Of a stretch of DNA of 64,000 bases, positions 20,467 through 29,584 are shown piece by piece. The position numbers and the translations under genes are program-made. How positions within the stretch are numbered: the stretch's first letter is position 1; each line of letters opens with the position of its first letter. Source of the stretch: an uncultured Acidimicrobiales bacterium (lineage in GTDB: Bacteria > Actinomycetota > Acidimicrobiia > Acidimicrobiales > CADCTF01); the NCBI GenBank assembly GCA_902805655.1, contig CADCTF010000087.1, positions 53,233 through 117,232 of the forward strand, given 5' to 3'. The notes beneath the pieces were generated by a model. The model searched no databases, was not told where the DNA came from, and saw only the letters and a list, made by a program, of their open reading frames with translations.

Positions 20467-21677
20467 GCACCAGGCCGGCCGTCGTGGTGGACGACGTGTC
20501 CAAGCGCTTCCGTCTCTACCGGGAGCGCAACCAGTCGCTGAAGGCGGCGCTGATGCGCGGCCGCCGCGCCGTCGTCGAGGAGTTCTGGGCGCTCCAGGAC
20601 GTCTCGTTCGAGGTGCCCGAGGGCTCGACCTTCGGGCTGGTCGGCGAGAACGGGTCGGGCAAGTCCACCCTGATGAAGTGCATGGCCCGAATCCTCCAGC
20701 CCGACCGCGGCAGCGTGCGGGTGAACGGCAAGGTCTCGGCCCTCCTCGAGCTCGGCGCCGGCTTCCATCCCGAGCTCTCGGGCCGGGAGAACGTCTTCCT
20801 CAACGGCTCGATCCTCGGGCTCGGCCAGAAGGAGCTCGCCGCCAAGTTCGACGAGATCGTGGAGTTCGCCGGGCTCGGCCAGTTCATCGACCAGCCGGTG
20901 AAGAACTACTCCAACGGGATGTACGTGCGGCTCGGCTTCTCGGTCGCCATCAACGTCGACCCCGACGTGCTGCTGGTCGACGAGGTGCTGGCCGTCGGTG
21001 ACGAAGCCTTCCAGCGCAAGTGCAACGAGAAGTTCGCCGACCTCAAGGCGGCCGGCAAGACGATCGTGCTGGTGTCCCACAACCTCTCCGCGGTGCACAA
21101 CCTCTGCGACCGGGCGGCGTGGCTCGAGCACGGCGTGCTCAAGATGATCGCACCGGCCCGCCAGATCGTCGACGAGTACATGAGCACCGTGCAGATCGAC
21201 CGCGTGGAGGATGTGGAGACGGGCGGCAACCGCTGGGGTTCGGGTGAGGGCCGAATCGAGAAGGTGGAGCTGCTCGGCCCTTCGGGAGAGCCCGCCAGCA
21301 AGGTGCGCACGGGCGACCCCGTCACCATTCGCATCCACTACTGCATGGACGAGCCCATCCCACGCCCGGTCTTCGGGTTGGCCATCCACACGCTCGACGG
21401 CACCCACGTCACCGGGCCGAACACGCGGGACACCGAGAGCGTGCCGGACAAGCTCGAGGGCGAGGGCCACGTCGACCTCCGCATCGATCCCATCAGGCTC
21501 CTGCCGGGCACCTACGACATCACCGCGTCGCTGTACGACTACGCGTGCCTGCACCCGTACGACTTCCGGCACCACGTCCTGCGCTTCGACGTCGACCCCG
21601 GCGAGCCGCACGAGAGCTATGGCGTCGTCTCCCTCGGGGGTAGCTGGCGGGTGCCGGGAGTCGACCCGGCCGCGTGA
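20463..21677 (+). CDS. wzt: Polysaccharide ABC exporter ATPase with C-terminal carbohydrate-binding (Wzt_C) domain
   Basis: GENGSGKST, GAGFHPELSGRENV, YSNGMYVRL, LLVDEVLAVGD, VSH; ~150 aa beta-rich tail (LLPGTY). Confidence 0.92.
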   Translation: MSTRPAVVVDDVSKRFRLYRERNQSLKAALMRGRRAVVEEFWALQDVSFEVPEGSTFGLVGENGSGKSTLMKCMARILQPDRGSVRVNGKVSALLELGAGFHPELSGRENVFLNGSILGLGQKELAAKFDEIVEFAGLGQFIDQPVKNYSNGMYVRLGFSVAINVDPDVLLVDEVLAVGDEAFQRKCNEKFADLKAAGKTIVLVSHNLSAVHNLCDRAAWLEHGVLKMIAPARQIVDEYMSTVQIDRVEDVETGGNRWGSGEGRIEKVELLGPSGEPASKVRTGDPVTIRIHYCMDEPIPRPVFGLAIHTLDGTHVTGPNTRDTESVPDKLEGEGHVDLRIDPIRLLPGTYDITASLYDYACLHPYDFRHHVLRFDVDPGEPHESYGVVSLGGSWRVPGVDPAA

Positions 21678-23023
21678 CGTCGACGCTGCCGCGCCGCCGC
21701 ATCGTCGTGGCGACCTGCGATCCCGTCACCGACCGCATGGCGGGCCCGGCCATCCGGGCGTGGCACATGGCCGAGGCGCTGTCGGCCGAGCACGAGGTGC
21801 GCCTCGTCAGCATCGCCGAGGTCGATCGCCCGGCTCCCCTCGACGGCGCCTTCTCCGTCGACCACGTCGGCGCCGAGGACCTCGTTGCGCTCGAGCGCTG
21901 GATGGACGTGCTGGTCTTCCAGGGCGGCCTGCTGCGCATCCACCCGTACCTGGCGGAGAGCGACAAGGTGATCGTTGCCGACATCTACGACCCCTTCCAC
22001 CTGGAGAACCTGGAGCAGACGAGGGGGAGGCCGGAGGCCGAGCGCCACGAGGTGATCGAGCACCTCACCGGTGTGCTCAACGACCAGCTGCGCCGGGGCG
22101 ACTTCTTCCTGGCCGCGAGCCCGCGCCAGCGCGACTTCTGGATGGGCAGCCTGGCCGCGCTCGGCCGGGTGAACCCGAGCACCTACGAACAGGACCCCAC
22201 CATGAGCGGGCTGGTCGACCTGGTGCCGTTCGGCCTCCCTGCGAGCCCACCGGTGAAGCGTCGCCCGGTGCTGCGGGGGGTCGTGCCCGGCATCGGGCCG
22301 GACGACGTCGTGCTCCTCTGGGCCGGTGGCGTCTACAACTGGTTCGATCCGCTCACCCTGGTGCGCGCCGTCGACCGGCTGCGGGTGGACGAGCCGACCC
22401 TTCGACTGTTCTTCCTGGGGCTCCAGCACCCCAACCCGGACATCCCGGCCATGAGCATGGCCACCGAGCTGCGGACCCTCAGCGACGAGCTCGGTCTCAC
22501 CGGCGTGCACGTCTTCTTCAACGAAGGCTGGGTGCCGTACGACGAGCGGGCCGACTACCTGCTCGAAGCCGACGTCGGCGTGAGCACCCACCTCGACCAC
22601 GTCGAGACGGCGTACAGCTTCCGCACGCGCATCCTCGACTACATCTGGGCGTCGCTGCCCATCGTGACGACGCAGGGTGACGCCTTCGCCGAGCTGGTGG
22701 AGGCGAGGTCGCTCGGCGCCACGGCCGCCGCGGGCGACGTCGACGGCCTCACCGTGGCGCTGCGCTCTCTGGTGGCCGGTCCGGCCCGGCGGGCAGCCTG
22801 CCGGGCTCAGGTCGCCGCCGTGGCCCCGGACCTGGCTTGGGACGTGGCGCTCGCGCCGCTGCTGCGCTTCTGCCGAGCCCCTCGTCGTGCCGACGACCTG
22901 GTGCGTGCGTGCGCCGATGTCGCCCCGAATGCGACGCATCCCGCCACAGCTGCCGCCGGGATGCCCCAGCCGGGGGGCTGGCGCGCCGCGCTGCGCCAGG
23001 TCCGCAGCAAGCTCCCTCGTTGA
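21674..23023 (+). CDS. GT4-like glycosyltransferase, close paralog of the C-half of 14631..17030
   Basis: MAGPAIR, DIYDPFHLE, WAGGVYNWFDP, SFRTRILDY. Confidence 0.85.
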   Translation: MTSTLPRRRIVVATCDPVTDRMAGPAIRAWHMAEALSAEHEVRLVSIAEVDRPAPLDGAFSVDHVGAEDLVALERWMDVLVFQGGLLRIHPYLAESDKVIVADIYDPFHLENLEQTRGRPEAERHEVIEHLTGVLNDQLRRGDFFLAASPRQRDFWMGSLAALGRVNPSTYEQDPTMSGLVDLVPFGLPASPPVKRRPVLRGVVPGIGPDDVVLLWAGGVYNWFDPLTLVRAVDRLRVDEPTLRLFFLGLQHPNPDIPAMSMATELRTLSDELGLTGVHVFFNEGWVPYDERADYLLEADVGVSTHLDHVETAYSFRTRILDYIWASLPIVTTQGDAFAELVEARSLGATAAAGDVDGLTVALRSLVAGPARRAACRAQVAAVAPDLAWDVALAPLLRFCRAPRRADDLVRACADVAPNATHPATAAAGMPQPGGWRAALRQVRSKLPR

Positions 23024-23173: not shown

Positions 23174-25009
23174 ATGAGACGTGCCGTACAGGTGCTCGTC
23201 GCCGCGCTGGTCGTGCTGGCGAGCAGCGCCCTTCCCATCGAGACCGCCTGGGCCGAGCCGGAGGTTCGCCTGCAGGAGCTCCCGATCTCCTCGGATTCGC
23301 CGGCGAGCCTCGCTCACCCCACGTCGCACCTCGGGCTGCGCTGGACCGGTGACGAGGACGCTGTCATCGAGCTTCGTGCACGTCCGGGTCGCGGCCCATG
23401 GACGACATGGGAGCGGTTGGAGGTGGCCCACGACCTGGGGGACGAGGAGAGGCGTGAGGTCCGCACCGGCCTGGTGCTCGCCTCTGATGCGGTGACGGTC
23501 GAGGTGCGCGTGACGGCCGGCGAGGTCGCCGACCTCCGCCTGATCGCCATCGACACGCAGCACGGGCCGCGGAAGCTGGTGGTCGAGAGTGCAGGGCCCA
23601 GGGCCGCCGCGGCGCTCATCCCCGGCGCGACGGTGCCTCAGCCCCACATCGTCAGCCGAGGCGAGTGGGGAGCCGACGAGTCGCTGGTGAGCGGTACGCC
23701 GTCCTACGCTGCCGTGCGCCGGGTGTCGGTCCACCACACCGTCTCGCCGAACAACGACCCCAACCCCGAAGCGACGCTGCGGGCCATCCTCAGCTATCAC
23801 ACGAGGTCCAACGGGTGGGACGACGTCGGCTACAACTTTCTCGTCGACGCCTCCGGCCGGATCTACGAGGGCCGCTCGGCCCGCCAGGGAGCCGCTCCGG
23901 GCGAGGACCGCAACGGCAACCTCGTCGTCGGAGCGCACACGGCCAACAACAACTCCGGCACCGTCGGCGTCGCCCTGCTCGGCACCTTCACCGACCAGGG
24001 GCCGACGCCGGCCGCCATGGCGGCGCTCGAGCGGTTGCTGACCTGGGAGGCCGACCGCCACGGCGTCGACACGCTCGCCACGACCACATGGACCAAGGGC
24101 GGCCAGACCATCCGGCAGCCGACGCTCATCGGCCACCGCGACACCGTGGCGACCGCGTGCCCCGGCGGTGTGCTCTACGACCAGCTCCCTGCCCTGCGCC
24201 AGCGGATTGCGGACGCTCGCAGCACCGGCCGCTCCACCGACCCGACCCCCGGCTACTGGGTGCTGGGCCAGGACTCGGGCATCTACAGCTTCGGGGCGGC
24301 CGAGCCGCTGCCGCCATCGCCCTGGAGCGCACCGGCCAACCCGCCGGCCAGCTCCATGGCGAGCACTCCGAGCGGACGCGGGTACTGGGTGCTGTCGGGC
24401 AACGGACGGGTGACGGCCTTCGGAGATGCGTCGGTCCACGGGTCGACCGAGGGCATGTCGCTGAACGCCCCGGCCGTCCGCCTCGAACCGACGCGCACGG
24501 GTGACGGCTACTGGATCCTCGCGGCCGATGGGGGTGTGTTCTCCTTTGGCGATGCGTCGTTCTGGGGGTCCACCGGCGACCTGCGACTGAACGCACCCGT
24601 CATCAGCATGTCCGCCACCACCTCGGGTGGTGGCTACTGGCTCCTTGCCGCCGACGGCGGCGTGTTCACCTTTGGCGACGGCGGCTTCCACGGCTCCACC
24701 GGCTCGATGCGGCTCAACGCACCTGTGGTCTCGATGGCTCCGCATCCCTCCGGGTCGGGCTACTGGCTGCAGGCGGCCGACGGCGGCATCTTCTCCTTCG
24801 GTGCCGTGGAGTTCTGGGGCAGCGTGCCAGAGCTCCGGCTCGCGGCTCCGCCGCGCAGCGTGCAGATCCGGGTCACCCGCACGGGGGTGGGCTACTACGT
24901 GCTCGGGGCCGACGGCAGTGTCCGGCGCTTCGGCGACGCCATCGCCCACGGCTCCCCGCCGCCGCTGCGAGGCGGAGGCTCGGCCATCGACCTCGTGCTG
25001 CGTCCGTAG
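23174..25009 (+). CDS. Secreted N-acetylmuramoyl-L-alanine amidase (Amidase_2/PGRP-like) with six C-terminal repeats
   Basis: Signal peptide (..ETAWA); SRGEWGADES, VHHT, YH..GWDDVGYNFLVD, GAHT, GHRD...TACPG; RBS GAGGAG upstream. Confidence 0.9.
   Translation: MRRAVQVLVAALVVLASSALPIETAWAEPEVRLQELPISSDSPASLAHPTSHLGLRWTGDEDAVIELRARPGRGPWTTWERLEVAHDLGDEERREVRTGLVLASDAVTVEVRVTAGEVADLRLIAIDTQHGPRKLVVESAGPRAAAALIPGATVPQPHIVSRGEWGADESLVSGTPSYAAVRRVSVHHTVSPNNDPNPEATLRAILSYHTRSNGWDDVGYNFLVDASGRIYEGRSARQGAAPGEDRNGNLVVGAHTANNNSGTVGVALLGTFTDQGPTPAAMAALERLLTWEADRHGVDTLATTTWTKGGQTIRQPTLIGHRDTVATACPGGVLYDQLPALRQRIADARSTGRSTDPTPGYWVLGQDSGIYSFGAAEPLPPSPWSAPANPPASSMASTPSGRGYWVLSGNGRVTAFGDASVHGSTEGMSLNAPAVRLEPTRTGDGYWILAADGGVFSFGDASFWGSTGDLRLNAPVISMSATTSGGGYWLLAADGGVFTFGDGGFHGSTGSMRLNAPVVSMAPHPSGSGYWLQAADGGIFSFGAVEFWGSVPELRLAAPPRSVQIRVTRTGVGYYVLGADGSVRRFGDAIAHGSPPPLRGGGSAIDLVLRP
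24251..25006 (+). repeat. Six ~42-aa GYW..A.DGG.F.FG repeats in the amidase C-terminus
   Basis: ggctactgg at 24506, 24632 and 24758 gives an exact 126-bp period; six GY[WY] units counted. Confidence 0.9.
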
Positions 25010-25027
25010 TCCTCGTCAGAGGCGGGG

Positions 25028-27064
25028 TCAGAGCGGCCGAGCGGCGCCCACGGTGGGCTCCGGGTGGCCGTAGGTGCGGGGTCCGCCACCCGGCGACGCG
25101 TCACCGAACCCGTGGACCCGCCCCTCCCGCGTGACGATGAGATACCCCTCGCCGGACGGGCTGGCCACCAGAGCGACCGCTGTCTCCCCGATGCCCCGCT
25201 CCGGCAGGCTGCCGTGGTAGCCGGCGTCCCCGAAGGTGAAGATGCCGCCGTCGCTGGCCACCAGCCAGTAGCCGTTGCCACTCGGGGTCGCGGCCATGGC
25301 GAAGACCGGCTGGTTCAGCCGCAGGTCTCCCGTCGAGCCATGGAAGGCGACGTCGCCGAAGCTGAAGATGCCGCCGTCGCCGGCCACCAACCAGTAGCCG
25401 TTGCCACTGGGATGGGGTGACATGCCGACCACCGGCCGGTTGAGCCGGAGGGCACCGGTGGAGCCGTAGAAGCCGGCGTCCCCGAAGGTGAAGATGCCGC
25501 CGTCGCCGGCCACCTCCCAGTAGCCACGCCCGGTGGCCGTGGCGGCGAGGCCGACGACGGGCGACGTGAGGGGCTGGCCGCGCATCGACCCGTACCAGGG
25601 CGCACCGAAGCCGTAGACCTCTGCGTCCTCCCCCATCAACCAGTACCCCCCGTCGGCCCCCTCGGCCATGTCGCGGATCGGCGTCGGGATGCCGAGCTCC
25701 TTGGTGGAGCCGTGGTAGCTCGCGCCGCCGAAGCTGAAGACGGCGCCGTCGCGGGCGACCACGTGGTACGGGAAGGACGCGATGCCGGGAGGCTCCGGCG
25801 CATCGACCACGGCGAACCAGTCCGACCGGATGCCCGCACCCGTACCGCCGAGAGCCGACCGGATCTCCGAGTCGTTGTCGCGCAGCACCTGACCACCCGT
25901 GAAGACCAGGGTCATCGACCGGATGCGGCCACCGAAGTCACCGAGACCGTTTCGTGAGTTGATGCGGATGCCGAGGAGGGTGCCCAGGTTGAACCGGGTC
26001 TCGATGTCGGCCACCGCGATCCGTGTCGACCACCGGTGGTACGGGTTGCAGCCCTCGCCCGGGCATGGCCGGTCGCCGCCGTCGGGGACCGCCGGGAACG
26101 TGCCGCCGGCCGAGTGCCCGCCGGTGGACGACGAGAACTCGGTGCGGGCGAAGGCGTGGTTGCTCATGCGGCGCACCTGGCCGGCCGTGGTGGCGACGGC
26201 CACGTCCGTGTTGGCCTCCTCGCGGAGGGTCGTGCCCTGCATCTCGACGCCGCCGAAGACCTGACACGACTCGGTGTTGCAGGTGTCGGCCACGCCGGGG
26301 AAGCGGCCCCGGCCGCTGTTGGACGCCTTGTCCGCCCACGCGTAGCTGCGGGCCGCGACGGCCTGCGCCCGCAACGCCTCCATGCCTCGACCGCCTCCGA
26401 GCGATCCCCAGAACGCCGGCGACTCCCTGGGCACGACGCCCCGCAGGTACGACTCCATGGGCACCAGGTTGATGGCCCGGAACGTCGAGCCTTCCATCTG
26501 CGCCCGCACCACGCCCCGGTAGAAGCGGCTCCCGGACGGTGTGCAGACCAGCAGCATCCGGTCCCGGTCGTCACCCTGGTTCGGATCGCTGGGGGCGACG
26601 TCGGTGATCCCGGACGTCGACCCCACCGGGCTCCACGGCCCGGCGCAGGATGGCGCCACGTCGATGAAGAGCGGGTCGCCGCCCTGGCGGATGCGAGCCG
26701 CCTGGCCCCCCTGGAAGTGGACGAGGCCGACGGTGAAGGGCTGCGCGGACGTCACGATCATGTCGGGCAGGGCCGGGTCGAGCCGCACCCGGATCGTGTC
26801 GTCGGGAGTGGACCCGGCGTAGGTGTTCCCGTAGTAGTGCTGGAGGATGTCGTGGTGGTTCCAGCCCTGCAGGGCGTAGCCGAGCGATCCGTACTGGCCC
26901 ATCCCCCGCCCGTGGCCGAACCCCTTGCCGACCACGTCGATGTGAGTGCTCGGATAGGCAGCTGCCGGCTCGGCCCGGCCGACGTCGACCCCGATGCCGG
27001 CCAGCGGCGCCAAGAGGGCCAGGGCCAGCACGGCTGGAAGCGAACGGCGGCGAGAGTTGGTCAT
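25028..27064 (-). CDS. Secreted SpoIID/LytB-domain protein with six C-terminal repeats
   Basis: Signal peptide; GFGHGRGMGQYG, ESYLRGVVPRE, EALRAQAVAARSY, CQVFGG, FSSSTGG. Confidence 0.9.
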   Translation of the reverse strand: MTNSRRRSLPAVLALALLAPLAGIGVDVGRAEPAAAYPSTHIDVVGKGFGHGRGMGQYGSLGYALQGWNHHDILQHYYGNTYAGSTPDDTIRVRLDPALPDMIVTSAQPFTVGLVHFQGGQAARIRQGGDPLFIDVAPSCAGPWSPVGSTSGITDVAPSDPNQGDDRDRMLLVCTPSGSRFYRGVVRAQMEGSTFRAINLVPMESYLRGVVPRESPAFWGSLGGGRGMEALRAQAVAARSYAWADKASNSGRGRFPGVADTCNTESCQVFGGVEMQGTTLREEANTDVAVATTAGQVRRMSNHAFARTEFSSSTGGHSAGGTFPAVPDGGDRPCPGEGCNPYHRWSTRIAVADIETRFNLGTLLGIRINSRNGLGDFGGRIRSMTLVFTGGQVLRDNDSEIRSALGGTGAGIRSDWFAVVDAPEPPGIASFPYHVVARDGAVFSFGGASYHGSTKELGIPTPIRDMAEGADGGYWLMGEDAEVYGFGAPWYGSMRGQPLTSPVVGLAATATGRGYWEVAGDGGIFTFGDAGFYGSTGALRLNRPVVGMSPHPSGNGYWLVAGDGGIFSFGDVAFHGSTGDLRLNQPVFAMAATPSGNGYWLVASDGGIFTFGDAGYHGSLPERGIGETAVALVASPSGEGYLIVTREGRVHGFGDASPGGGPRTYGHPEPTVGAARPL
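25031..25772 (-). repeat. Six ~42-aa GYW..A.DGG.F.FG repeats in the SpoIID protein C-terminus
   Basis: PYHVVARDGAVFSFG, GYWLMGEDAEVYGFG, GYWEVAGDGGIFTFG, GYWLVAGDGGIFSFG, GYWLVASDGGIFTFG, GYLIVTREGRVHGFG. Confidence 0.9.
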
Positions 27065-27225: not shown

Positions 27226-28629
27226 GTGCAGTGCTGCGATGTGGCGGTCCTCGGTGCCGGCCCGGCCGGGCTGATGGCCGCTCGGCGGCTGGCCGGCGCG
27301 GGCCGCTCCGTGGTGGTGCTGGAGGCGGCGACATCCGTCGGCGGCATGGCCGGAAGCTTCGAGATCGCCGGGGTGCGGGTGGACTTCGGGAGCCACCGCC
27401 TCCACCCCACGTCGAGCCCGCACCTGCTGGCCGACCTGCAGGCCCTGCTCGGCGACGACCTCCAGACGCGCCGCCGGCACGGTCGCATCGCCCTGCAGGG
27501 CCGCTGGCTTCGCTTTCCGCTCCAGCTAGGCGACCTGGCCCGGAACCTTCCCAGGAGGTTCGTCGCAGGTGTCGCGGTGGACACGGCCCTGTCGCCGCTC
27601 CGGTCCGCCGCCCTGCGGTCGAGACAGGCGCCGAACGCAGTGCAGGCCATCGAGGCCCGACTCGGCCCGACGGTGGCCCGCAGCTTCTACACCCCGTATC
27701 TCACCAAGCTCTGGGGCACCGACCCGGAGCAGCTGGGCCGGGAGCTGGCCGACCGGCGGGTGTCAGCCCGAAGCCCCCTGGCTCTGGCCGCCAAGGCTCT
27801 CCGCACTCGGCGGGAAACCGACGGCGCCGGCACGTTCCGCTACCCGCGCCGGGGGTTCGGCCAGATCAGCGAGGCCGTCGCAGCCGCGGCCACCAACGCG
27901 GGCGCCGACATCCGGCTCGGTGCCGCCGTCACCCAGGTGGCCCTGGACGAGGCCGGAGCCACGATCACGCTCCCAGGTGGCCGTGTCGTGCGGGCCGCGG
28001 CGCTCCTGTCCTCCATCCCGGTCGCGGCGCTGGCCCACCTGGCCGGCGCGCCGAGCCCCGTGCTGGCCGCGGCCGGCCGCCTGCGCCACCGGGCGATGGT
28101 GCTGGCCTACCTGGTGCTGGACACCGACCGCCTCACGCCCTTCGACGCCCACTACTTCCCCGAGATGTCGACACCGGTGAGCCGGATGAGCGAGCCCAAG
28201 AACTACCGCGACGACCCGAAAGACCCGAGCGGGGTCACGGTGGTGTGCGCCGAGCTGCCGTGCTGGGAGGGCGACGACGTCTGGACGGCATCGGTCGACG
28301 AGCTCCGTGCTCTCGTCGTGTCGACCCTCGAGCCGTTGGGGCTCCGGTTCCCGAGGGTGCTCGACGTGCAGGTGCGCCGCATCCCGCGCTGCTACCCCGT
28401 CTACACCGGCTCGTACGAGGCCGATCTGGCCGGGATCGAGGACTGGGCGGCGCAGCAGCCCCGCCTCGTCACCTTCGGGCGCCAGGGCCTCTACAACCCC
28501 GACAACACCCACCACACGCTGGAGATGGGCGAGGAGGCCGCGGCTGCCGTGCGAGCCGACGGGACCATCGACCGGGTGCGGTGGGATGCCGCCCGCGAGC
28601 GCTTCCGCGCCAACGTCGTCGAGGACTGA
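27226..28629 (+). CDS. FAD-dependent oxidoreductase (HemY / UDP-galactopyranose mutase-like)
   Basis: GAGPAGL dinucleotide motif, VGGMAGS, DFGSHRLH, YPVY, FGRQGLY..DNTHH. Confidence 0.75.
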   Translation: MQCCDVAVLGAGPAGLMAARRLAGAGRSVVVLEAATSVGGMAGSFEIAGVRVDFGSHRLHPTSSPHLLADLQALLGDDLQTRRRHGRIALQGRWLRFPLQLGDLARNLPRRFVAGVAVDTALSPLRSAALRSRQAPNAVQAIEARLGPTVARSFYTPYLTKLWGTDPEQLGRELADRRVSARSPLALAAKALRTRRETDGAGTFRYPRRGFGQISEAVAAAATNAGADIRLGAAVTQVALDEAGATITLPGGRVVRAAALLSSIPVAALAHLAGAPSPVLAAAGRLRHRAMVLAYLVLDTDRLTPFDAHYFPEMSTPVSRMSEPKNYRDDPKDPSGVTVVCAELPCWEGDDVWTASVDELRALVVSTLEPLGLRFPRVLDVQVRRIPRCYPVYTGSYEADLAGIEDWAAQQPRLVTFGRQGLYNPDNTHHTLEMGEEAAAAVRADGTIDRVRWDAARERFRANVVED

Positions 28630-28654
28630 CGACCTGCTGCCATACGCTCCCCCG

Positions 28655-29580
28655 GTGATCACCGCTATCGCCGGAGGCGTCGGGGCGGCGCGCATGTTGC
28701 GAGGCCTGGTGAGCGTCGTGCCCGCGGAGGACGTCACCGCCGTGGTGAACACGGGTGACGACATCGTCCTGCACGGCCTGCACATCAGCCCGGATCTCGA
28801 CACCGTCACCTACACGCTCGCCTCGGCCATCGACCCTGTGCAGGGGTGGGGCCTCGAAGGTGAGACGTGGAACGCCATGGAGGCGCTGGACCGCTTCGGT
28901 GGCCAGACGTGGTTCCGCCTCGGCGACCGCGACCTGGCCACCCACCTCTATCGCACGCAACGCCTGTCGGAAGGCGCCGGTCTGGGCGACGTGACGGACG
29001 AGATCGTCCGTGCATGGGGCCTCCGGCTGCGGGTGCTGCCCATGACCAACGAGCGGGTGGAGACCCGTGTCACCCTCGCCGCCGACGGCACCGAAGTGGG
29101 CTTCCAGGAGTACTTCGTGGGCGAGCGGCACTCGGTGCCGGTTCGGTCGATCCGCTTCCACGGCATCGAGCAGGCCGCGCCGGCCCCCGGCGTGCTGGAC
29201 GCGATAGCCGCGGCCGATCGCGTCGTGGTCTGCCCCTCCAACCCGATCGTGTCGATCGGCCCGGTGCTCGCCGTGCCCGGCATCCTCGATGCCATCGCCG
29301 CCCGCCGGGACGACGTGGTGGCGATCTCCCCGATCATCGCCGGAGCGGCCCTCAAGGGACCAGCCGATCGCATGTTGGTCGAGCTCGGCCACGAGCCGTC
29401 GGTGCTCGGCGTGGCCCGCCTCTACGCCCCGTTCGCGTCCACCCTGCTGATCGACGTGGCCGACGAGGCGCTGGCCGGGGCGGTTGCCGCCGAGGGCGTC
29501 CGTCCGGTGGTCGTGCCCACGATCATGCGGGACGCAGAGACATCGGCCGCCCTCGCTCGCGCCGTCCTGGCCGCGTACAG

Positions 29581-29584
<4 letters not shown>
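28655..29584 (+). CDS. cofD: 2-phospho-L-lactate/PEP transferase (F420 biosynthesis)
   Basis: GGVGAAR, VNTGDD, ISPDLDT, WFRLGDRDLATH, FQEYFV, PSNPIVSIGP, KGPAD. Confidence 0.95.

Follow-up and report, generated by a model that had tools for sequence, protein, structure and literature searches.

A predicted six-bladed propeller shared by two convergently encoded wall enzymes of an uncultured Acidimicrobiales bacterium and by phage lysins is a candidate wall-binding module

We analysed a stretch of 64,000 nucleotides (the window) from contig CADCTF010000087.1 of the genome assembly GCA_902805655.1, which belongs to an uncultured soil bacterium of the Acidimicrobiales. Two genes in the window, here called A (23174-25009, plus strand, 611 amino acids) and B (25028-27064, minus strand, 678 amino acids), are convergent, and their stop codons are separated by a spacer of 18 bp (25010-25027). 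A preliminary description of this DNA had claimed this arrangement and had described the products as two unrelated wall enzymes that end in the same six-unit repeat domain; the coordinates of the open reading frames (ORFs), together with the Pfam and NCBIfam assignments given below, confirm both points. In the reading that we favor, to which we assign a probability of about 0.6, A and B are exported peptidoglycan hydrolases, and the shared domain is a closed six-bladed propeller that serves as a non-catalytic address module, most likely by binding the wall.

The protein encoded by A comprises a signal-peptide-like N-terminus (judged by eye and by a crude heuristic), an N-terminal region, an amidase domain, and the repeats. 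The amidase domain (residues 179-331; 23708-24166, plus strand) is assigned to Amidase_2, the N-acetylmuramoyl-L-alanine amidases of the peptidoglycan recognition protein (PGRP) type (Pfam PF01510, E = 1.3e-16, 61.5 bits against a cut-off of 26). Among solved structures, PGRP domains are its closest relatives (4zxm_A, E = 2e-21), and its HH and GHRD...TACPG motifs align with those of 4zxm_A; we take the HH and GHRD...C motifs to be the zinc ligands. No Pfam family matched the approximately 150 residues between the signal peptide and the amidase (23255-23707, plus strand).

The protein encoded by B has a signal-like N-terminus with an RRR motif, a SpoIID/LytB catalytic region (residues 40-388; 25901-26947, minus strand), and the repeats. 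Pfam SpoIID matched residues 193-297 (E = 2e-19, 70.4 bits against a cut-off of 23), and NCBIfam TIGR02669, SpoIID/LytB, scored 112.1 bits against a cut-off of 83.3. Assignment of B to the sporulation equivalog TIGR02870 was rejected, as that model reached only 72 bits against a cut-off of 234.75. The segments of the catalytic region match the solved SpoIID structure 4rwr_A in permuted order: residues 42-80 of B align with residues 276-314 of the chain, and residues 196-385 with residues 61-240. From this alignment, the SpoIID domain of B looks circularly permuted relative to 4rwr_A. The alignment also locates a GHG-x-GM-x-QYG segment in the N-terminal part of the region (26888-26923, minus strand), and the same N-terminal position was found in all five B-orthologues checked and in two of three other proteins that combine SpoIID with the propeller.

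Exactly six units of approximately 42 residues were observed in each protein, as had been claimed: a hidden Markov model (HMM) of the unit gave six matches in A (residues 343-596; 24200-24961, plus strand) and six in B (residues 419-663; 25076-25810, minus strand). The core motif of the repeat is G-Y-W-L-V-A-x-D-G-G-I-F-x-F-G-D-A. In A, the unit alignment and G-Y-W anchors at residues 360, 403, 445, 487, 529, and 573 also mark the units. The anchors of B lie at residues 473, 514, 556, 598, and 640, and its degenerate first unit has P-Y-H at residues 431-433; the G-Y-W consensus stated earlier therefore fails in this unit and holds in the others. The 126-bp period is exact in the core of the arrays, since Tandem Repeats Finder reported a period of 126 at 25211-25562, and three copies in B and four 62-nucleotide copies in A occur at 126-nucleotide spacing.

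At 48% identity (E = 8e-64), the modules of A and B resemble each other far more than chance would allow. In both proteins, units 3-5 are the best conserved, with a consensus identity of 0.64-0.79 against 0.24-0.45 for units 1, 2, and 6. The same gradient was found across 41 family members, in which the column identity is 0.70-0.74 for units 3-5 and 0.46-0.56 for units 1, 2, and 6. Because it is seen in A, in B, and in these members alike, the gradient belongs to the family as a whole. Both arrays begin in the middle of a unit and end in a lone strand, as the preliminary description noted: unit 1 lacks its first strand, and an extra strand-like segment stands at the C-terminus. In A, this segment (residues 603-611; 24980-25006, plus strand) aligns with the first-strand position of the unit and, by analogy with the model of B, is proposed to close blade 1. 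In B, it comprises residues 671-678 (25031-25054, minus strand) and corresponds to a DSSP strand at residues 251-255 of the model, in a block with a predicted local distance difference test (pLDDT) score of 95-97.

The two arrays form an imperfect inverted repeat in the DNA, with arms that are 71-82% complementary. This arises because homologous coding regions sit on opposite strands, and it indicates nothing more. Gene conversion between the inverted arrays was considered and rejected, as the arms are only 71-82% complementary and the A-type and B-type modules diverged separately. Over stretches that take in the module, the A-orthologues share 59-66% identity with A, and their modules are only 44-54% identical to that of B; therefore, the module copies of A and B diverged before the radiation of the family.

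The fold was predicted with AlphaFold2 for the last 258 residues of B. The alignment used consisted of 41 six-unit modules, namely those of A and B, nine paralogues of this genome, and 30 from related genomes; these are all the ORFs with exactly six units among the 49 ORFs of the own and related loci. The model had a mean pLDDT of 95.2 and a predicted template-modelling score of 0.91. DSSP assigned three strands to each unit, except that unit 1 has only the last two (residues 13-17 and 22-25), and the lone confident strand at residues 251-255 ends the chain. When the module was aligned with 48,161 PDB representatives independently of Foldseek, 20 of the 22 best entries were six-bladed propellers (Z 14.8-16.9). 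The top match was the YWTD propeller of LRP4 (3v65_B; Z 16.9, root-mean-square deviation (rmsd) 3.7, 225 residues aligned), and the other YWTD matches were ApoER2, nidogen, LRP6, and LDLR. The NHL propellers TRIM2 (Z 16.1) and PknD (Z 15.6), the monomeric RSL lectin (Z 15.0), and TolB (Z 14.8) were also among the six-bladed matches. The two other entries, both at Z 14.8, were a Cu/Zn-SOD entry (9m58_A) and a seven-bladed design (7bid_A). Re-alignment of the top 1000 chains from Foldseek concurred, with the YWTD propeller of megalin at Z 17.2 and the designed Pizza6 at Z 15.3. Sequence identity between the module and its structural neighbors is 5-13%.

Foldseek itself returned mostly seven-bladed WD40 and RCC1-like chains from the PDB, with template-modelling scores of 0.46-0.60 and none close. 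In BFVD, the matches were limited to generic WD40 and RCC1-like viral proteins, and none was lysin-like. The predicted module of B is neither a solenoid nor unstructured, and its best neighbors are six-bladed at Z 15-17. The six-bladed propeller proposed in the preliminary description is thus supported by direct modelling for B; for A, the same fold is predicted from its identity to B. The closure of the ring in the manner of velcro, also proposed there, agrees with the strand pattern. We infer that the C-terminal strand pairs with blade 1 because of the DSSP strand pattern and because the structural alignments run to residue 258.

Some of these neighbors raise the question of whether the propeller itself is an enzyme, like the six-bladed hydrolases and lactonases of the SMP-30/PON type, or a ligand sensor like PknD. 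Drp35 and a beta-propeller lactonase are among the structural neighbors (Z 13-14.5), as is the PknD sensor (Z 15.6), and Asp and Gly motifs are invariant in each blade. However, the conserved residues are identical blade by blade, as is expected of a structural core and not of a single active site, and no enzyme family was matched in Pfam or NCBIfam. Furthermore, a separate catalytic domain accompanies the module, and versions with two and three blades exist. We consider an enzyme or sensor role very improbable.

The repeat has no name in the catalogues that we searched, which were Pfam-A (2025 copy), NCBIfam 20, and the PDB sequences. Nothing in Pfam-A or NCBIfam exceeded its threshold on the repeat, and no unrelated function was found for it. 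The sole trace at the sequence level was RCC1_2 at 13.5 bits (E = 0.065), under its cut-off of 22; the RCC1 (PF00415) and RCC1_2 (PF13540) models gave no match genome-wide, despite the 17 carriers in this genome. The Ldl_recept_b and NHL models of Pfam did not match A or B at E <= 1, and the best PDB sequence match of the module of B had an E of only 0.85. A profile of the family gave weak matches to the RLD of HERC2 (4l1m_A, E = 0.0052) and to RPGR (E = 0.11-0.26), and WD40_RLD matched two of 77 viral ORFs (best E = 2.2e-4). These scores are a weak hint, and no more, of remote kinship to RCC1-like repeats. Neighbors in the ESM Atlas were unnamed actinobacterial clusters only, one of which has RCC1_2 on 16% of its members. 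Our literature search, which covered papers outside their supplementary files, found no paper on the 42-residue repeat. Some public homologues (P0032 and P0098) are labelled "ribosomal protein L24E" by JGI, a name that seems to have been given to the repeat automatically and in error. The module is a genuine domain family of known fold class that is nameless in the libraries and papers searched.

This family is very large. When 1.84 billion cluster representatives were searched exhaustively, 18,959 clusters (at 50% identity) matched at E <= 1e-3 and 8,673 at E <= 1e-30, so that the family holds at least 18,959 clusters; a word-indexed search gave at least 8000 matches, as 8000 of 8000 scored candidates passed. 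Among the matches listed, the named homologues and B-orthologues come from metagenome-assembled genomes labelled Acidimicrobiales, Acidimicrobiia, Acidimicrobiaceae, or Actinomycetota, and one cultured strain, Acidithrix ferrooxidans PY-F3, has the repeat (homologue L171, 52% identical). The present genome (3.2 Mb, 160 contigs) has 17 repeat genes, or 18 ORFs when a one-unit fragment is counted. Besides this fragment, six units were found in 12 of these ORFs, five in three, seven in one, and three in one that lies at a contig end. Six is the conserved count, both in this genome and among the 49 ORFs of the own and related loci, 41 of which have it. All 12 genomes sampled from the same family had 40-80 matches each, only two of eight genomes from other families of the order had a match, and 13 of 301 genomes in an even sample of the phylum matched at E <= 1e-10 (a count that takes in the unpublished G167, G021, and G245). 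The module is thus restricted to a lineage and, where present, has undergone a huge expansion.

The fusion partners of the module are diverse. Pfam identified in this genome Amidase_2, SpoIID, YkuD with PG_binding_1, VanY, two M10-like domains, GH43, and GDSL, as well as an NHL propeller, Malectin, DUF5122, and a terpene-cyclase-like domain; for several carriers, Pfam gave no partner. The module is C-terminal in most carriers of this genome and N-terminal in four, and a crude heuristic found a signal-peptide-like start in 13 of the 17. Partners elsewhere, among the matches listed, include S8, S53, GH43, GH18, GH3, CHAP, M23, VanY, YkuD, 3D, sialidases, and FG-GAP and PQQ propellers. The module is thus found on many kinds of secreted enzymes, beyond wall enzymes. 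Rival anchors are few in this genome, with two LysM proteins and two PG_binding_1 proteins against 17 propeller genes, and SLH gave no match in it.

Two carriers of this genome that lie outside the window have unusual features. The paralogue G000:C98:25086-26606 (minus strand) has an N-terminal propeller with seven HMM matches, followed by PG_binding_1 and a YkuD L,D-transpeptidase domain, and by sequence would combine two putative wall-binding modules in one protein. The Malectin-domain carrier G000:C1:121456-122058 (minus strand) has an in-frame TGA within its repeat array, which may stem from pseudogenisation, a frameshift, or misassembly.

The module is also present in phage lysins. In IMG/VR, 87 contigs that encode a relative were identified by a pattern scan, and 80 loci were kept. 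Among 80 viral ORFs in 79 loci, the unit HMM counted two blades in 40, three in 30, six in five, 11-12 in two, and one in three. A Pfam scan of 77 of these ORFs (two were cut at a contig end, and the third ORF left out is the second one of L072) identified Amidase_2 in 55, GH25 in one, and PG_binding_1 in one. An amidase followed by two or three blades makes up the typical viral carrier, of approximately 260 residues; the endolysins of Gram-positive hosts have the same layout, with the enzyme first and the wall-binding domain at the C-terminus. The position of a wall-binding domain, next to the catalytic domain, is occupied by the repeat in phage lysins and in the host Amidase_2, SpoIID, YkuD, and VanY proteins. 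The neighbors of L102 are major-tail and tail-fibre genes, and those of L076 are helicase and polymerase-like phage genes.

Larger viral carriers were also seen. The mangrove-soil phage MK557849 in GenBank, the one such record among deposited phage genomes, encodes a 1304-residue protein annotated as GH25 (L062:2636-6550) with the repeat at seven places. Its gene adjoins one for a minor tail protein, and the product may be a virion-associated lysin with propellers and not an endolysin. Two IMG/VR ORFs of approximately 1,000 residues (L065:2906-6037 and L066:2711-5776) have 11-12 units, which by their number would make two tandem propellers, and L072 and L081 have six units within large proteins.

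The range of partners makes it conceivable that the module is a general carbohydrate-binding, lectin-like module directed at environmental polysaccharides or at the surfaces of other organisms, and not at the cell's own wall. Fusions to GH43, GH18, GH3, sialidase, Malectin, and GDSL esterase would suit such a role, as would the likeness in fold to the fucose lectins RSL (Z 15.0) and AAL (Z 13.2). In addition, propeller lectins of actinobacteria target wall polymers of other species. However, the 55 Amidase_2 lysins among the 77 viral carriers act on the wall of their own host, and the housekeeping wall enzymes SpoIID, YkuD, and VanY bear the module. The blade sequence is strongly conserved across unlike partners, which argues for one common ligand and not for many substrates. 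We judge this alternative unlikely.

The blade counts of two and three that prevail in the phages are divisors of six. We modelled the two-blade tail as three copies, using an alignment (A3) of 31 of the 40 two-unit ORFs with L101 as its first row. All three runs gave an ipSAE of 0.93, whereas the best of three controls gave 0.00; at least 84% of contacts recurred between runs, and the pLDDT of the partners was at least 87. The contacts run head-to-tail round the ring, so that blade 1 of one copy meets blade 2 of the next. In a calibration, 20 of 30 solved homo-pairs and one of 23 solved single chains attained the mark set for the trimer; these counts hold only roughly for the trimer, as they were obtained with two copies and the chains' own alignments. 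The model supports the closure of two-blade phage tails into a predicted trimeric ring. The PropLec6A propeller lectins require oligomerisation to reach six blades (PMC11186620).

Such self-assembly of blade fragments would also be expected of a docking or oligomerisation module that attaches to a protein, for example an S-layer or scaffold protein, with no direct affinity for wall glycans. The partner range is broad in the manner of dockerins, and YWTD, NHL, and TolB propellers bind proteins or peptides. However, no partner gene was seen to recur beside the carriers, and in the single-chain six-blade forms the ring is already closed. Lysins, moreover, attack the wall as infection ends, when binding to a surface protein would bring no obvious gain. 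Protein docking appears to us quite unlikely as the role of the module.

Several observations weigh against the wall-binding propeller that we favor. Seven-bladed chains reach Z 13-14 against 15-17 for six-bladed ones, a margin that is real and modest. No usable model was obtained for A, for which full-length, single-sequence AlphaFold2 gave a pLDDT of 36.1, and the closure by the last strand is read from DSSP and not from coordinates. The case for a wall-binding role draws on the fusion partners and on where the module sits in the lysins of phages. Partners other than wall enzymes are numerous (S8 and S53 proteases, GH43, GDSL, FG-GAP, PQQ); these would suit retention at the cell surface, but would suit general glycan binding or docking equally well. 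IMG/VR may hold misassigned host DNA, and the phage context was checked in two loci (L102 and L076). The trimer is a model score for the two-blade tail and may reflect likeness to solved oligomeric propellers. Finally, three sortase genes in this genome show that other anchoring routes exist.

On balance, we infer wall binding, the nature of the ligand, and the cooperation of A and B as follows. Both proteins would be exported, each with a propeller that starts in the middle of a blade and whose blade 1 would be completed by the final strand of the chain. The propeller would bind a component of the wall in these Acidimicrobiales, be it peptidoglycan or a glycopolymer linked to the wall, and this binding would keep the catalytic domain on the wall. 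There, the amidase A would strip stem peptides, and B, as a SpoIID-type lytic transglycosylase, would cut the stripped glycan strands. The common propeller may bring A and B to one substrate and so replace the membrane scaffold of Bacillus. In Bacillus, SpoIID cuts glycan that lacks stem peptides, after the amidase SpoIIP has removed them (PMC9600426). The module may retain many other exoenzymes of the lineage in the same manner, and in phages of the lineage two or three blades would form the wall-binding end of the lysin and oligomerise into a six-blade ring. The broadest form of this proposal is that a new family of wall-binding propellers is the main surface display of the Acidimicrobiales, with phage lysins that complete the ring by trimerising two blades or dimerising three; we offer it tentatively and rate its chances as somewhat below even.

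The convergent pair is conserved beyond this genome. A and B, each with its propeller, are kept in the loci of five of ten relatives, in four genera (L035, L040, L041, L042, and L043, from the relatives G004, G003, G009, G007, and G002, respectively). In the loci of the other five relatives, no A-like ORF was seen within the 1.5-kb flank. The genes flanking the pair in the window form no obvious wall cluster: a GT1-type glycosyltransferase (21674-23023, plus strand) lies on one side, and a flavin amine-oxidase-like protein (27226-28629, plus strand) and CofD (28307-29584, plus strand) lie on the other. The CofD ORF as listed overlaps the oxidase gene, and its true start is probably later.

If these proposals are true, a domain family that ranks among the largest still absent from the curated catalogues gains a fold and a role, and thousands of "hypothetical" secreted proteins from soil and peat Acidimicrobiia can be annotated. 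The retention of exoenzymes on the cell would be explained for a poorly cultured lineage, and the locus would suggest that an amidase and a SpoIID-type glycan cutter can meet their substrate without a membrane scaffold. The closed propeller would be a structurally new class of wall-binding module for endolysin engineering, and the trimerising or dimerising lysins would be multi-headed endolysins in which assembly and wall binding are one single step. With two or three blades, the phage versions offer a natural experiment on how a propeller assembles from fragments.

Known wall-binding domains include the choline-binding CW_binding_1 repeats, SH3b, LysM, CW_7, SLH, and CWB2. Like the wall-binding domains of Gram-positive bacteria, the present module is a non-catalytic repeat module that stands beside varied catalytic domains in secreted proteins, is common to host autolysins and phage lysins, and is multivalent through repeats or oligomers. 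In contrast to them, it has no sequence match to these domains, is predicted to be a closed six-bladed propeller and not a solenoid, SH3, or LysM fold, and is a putative wall binder. The YWTD and NHL propellers, including PknD of Mycobacterium tuberculosis, are its best structural matches (Z 15.6-17.2, rmsd 3.4-3.7 over 206-228 residues), and they share with it six blades of approximately 42 residues and an aromatic Y-W pair in the second strand. However, their sequence identity to the module is 5-11% and their Pfam models do not match it, so that the likeness is structural alone; these propellers bind proteins or act in eukaryotic receptors. The RCC1-like repeats of HERC2 and RPGR have the D-G-x-V/I-x-x-F/W-G turn in common with the module. 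RCC1 domains have seven blades of approximately 50-60 residues, whereas the module has six of 42.

As in the SpoIID-SpoIIP (DMP) system of Bacillus subtilis, this locus pairs the gene of an amidase with that of a SpoIID-family enzyme. Unlike DMP, however, the amidase is of the Amidase_2 (PGRP) type rather than SpoIIP, a SpoIIM scaffold and a membrane anchor are lacking, the SpoIID domain of B is apparently permuted, and the cooperation of the two enzymes is putative. With the PropLec6A lectins, the module shares the occurrence of a single-chain six-blade form (AAL) alongside oligomeric forms with few blades (RSL and BambL, two blades in each of three chains). UmbA4 of Streptomyces coelicolor is, like the module, an actinobacterial six-bladed propeller, and its ligand is a wall glycopolymer, namely wall teichuronic acid (bioRxiv 10.1101/2025.04.24.650519). 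Within the phylum, UmbA4 is a direct functional precedent for a propeller that binds a wall polymer. The module has no sequence relation to PropLec6A or UmbA4, and it differs from them in its setting: it is an appendage of enzymes, whereas they are a free lectin and the spoke of a toxin particle.

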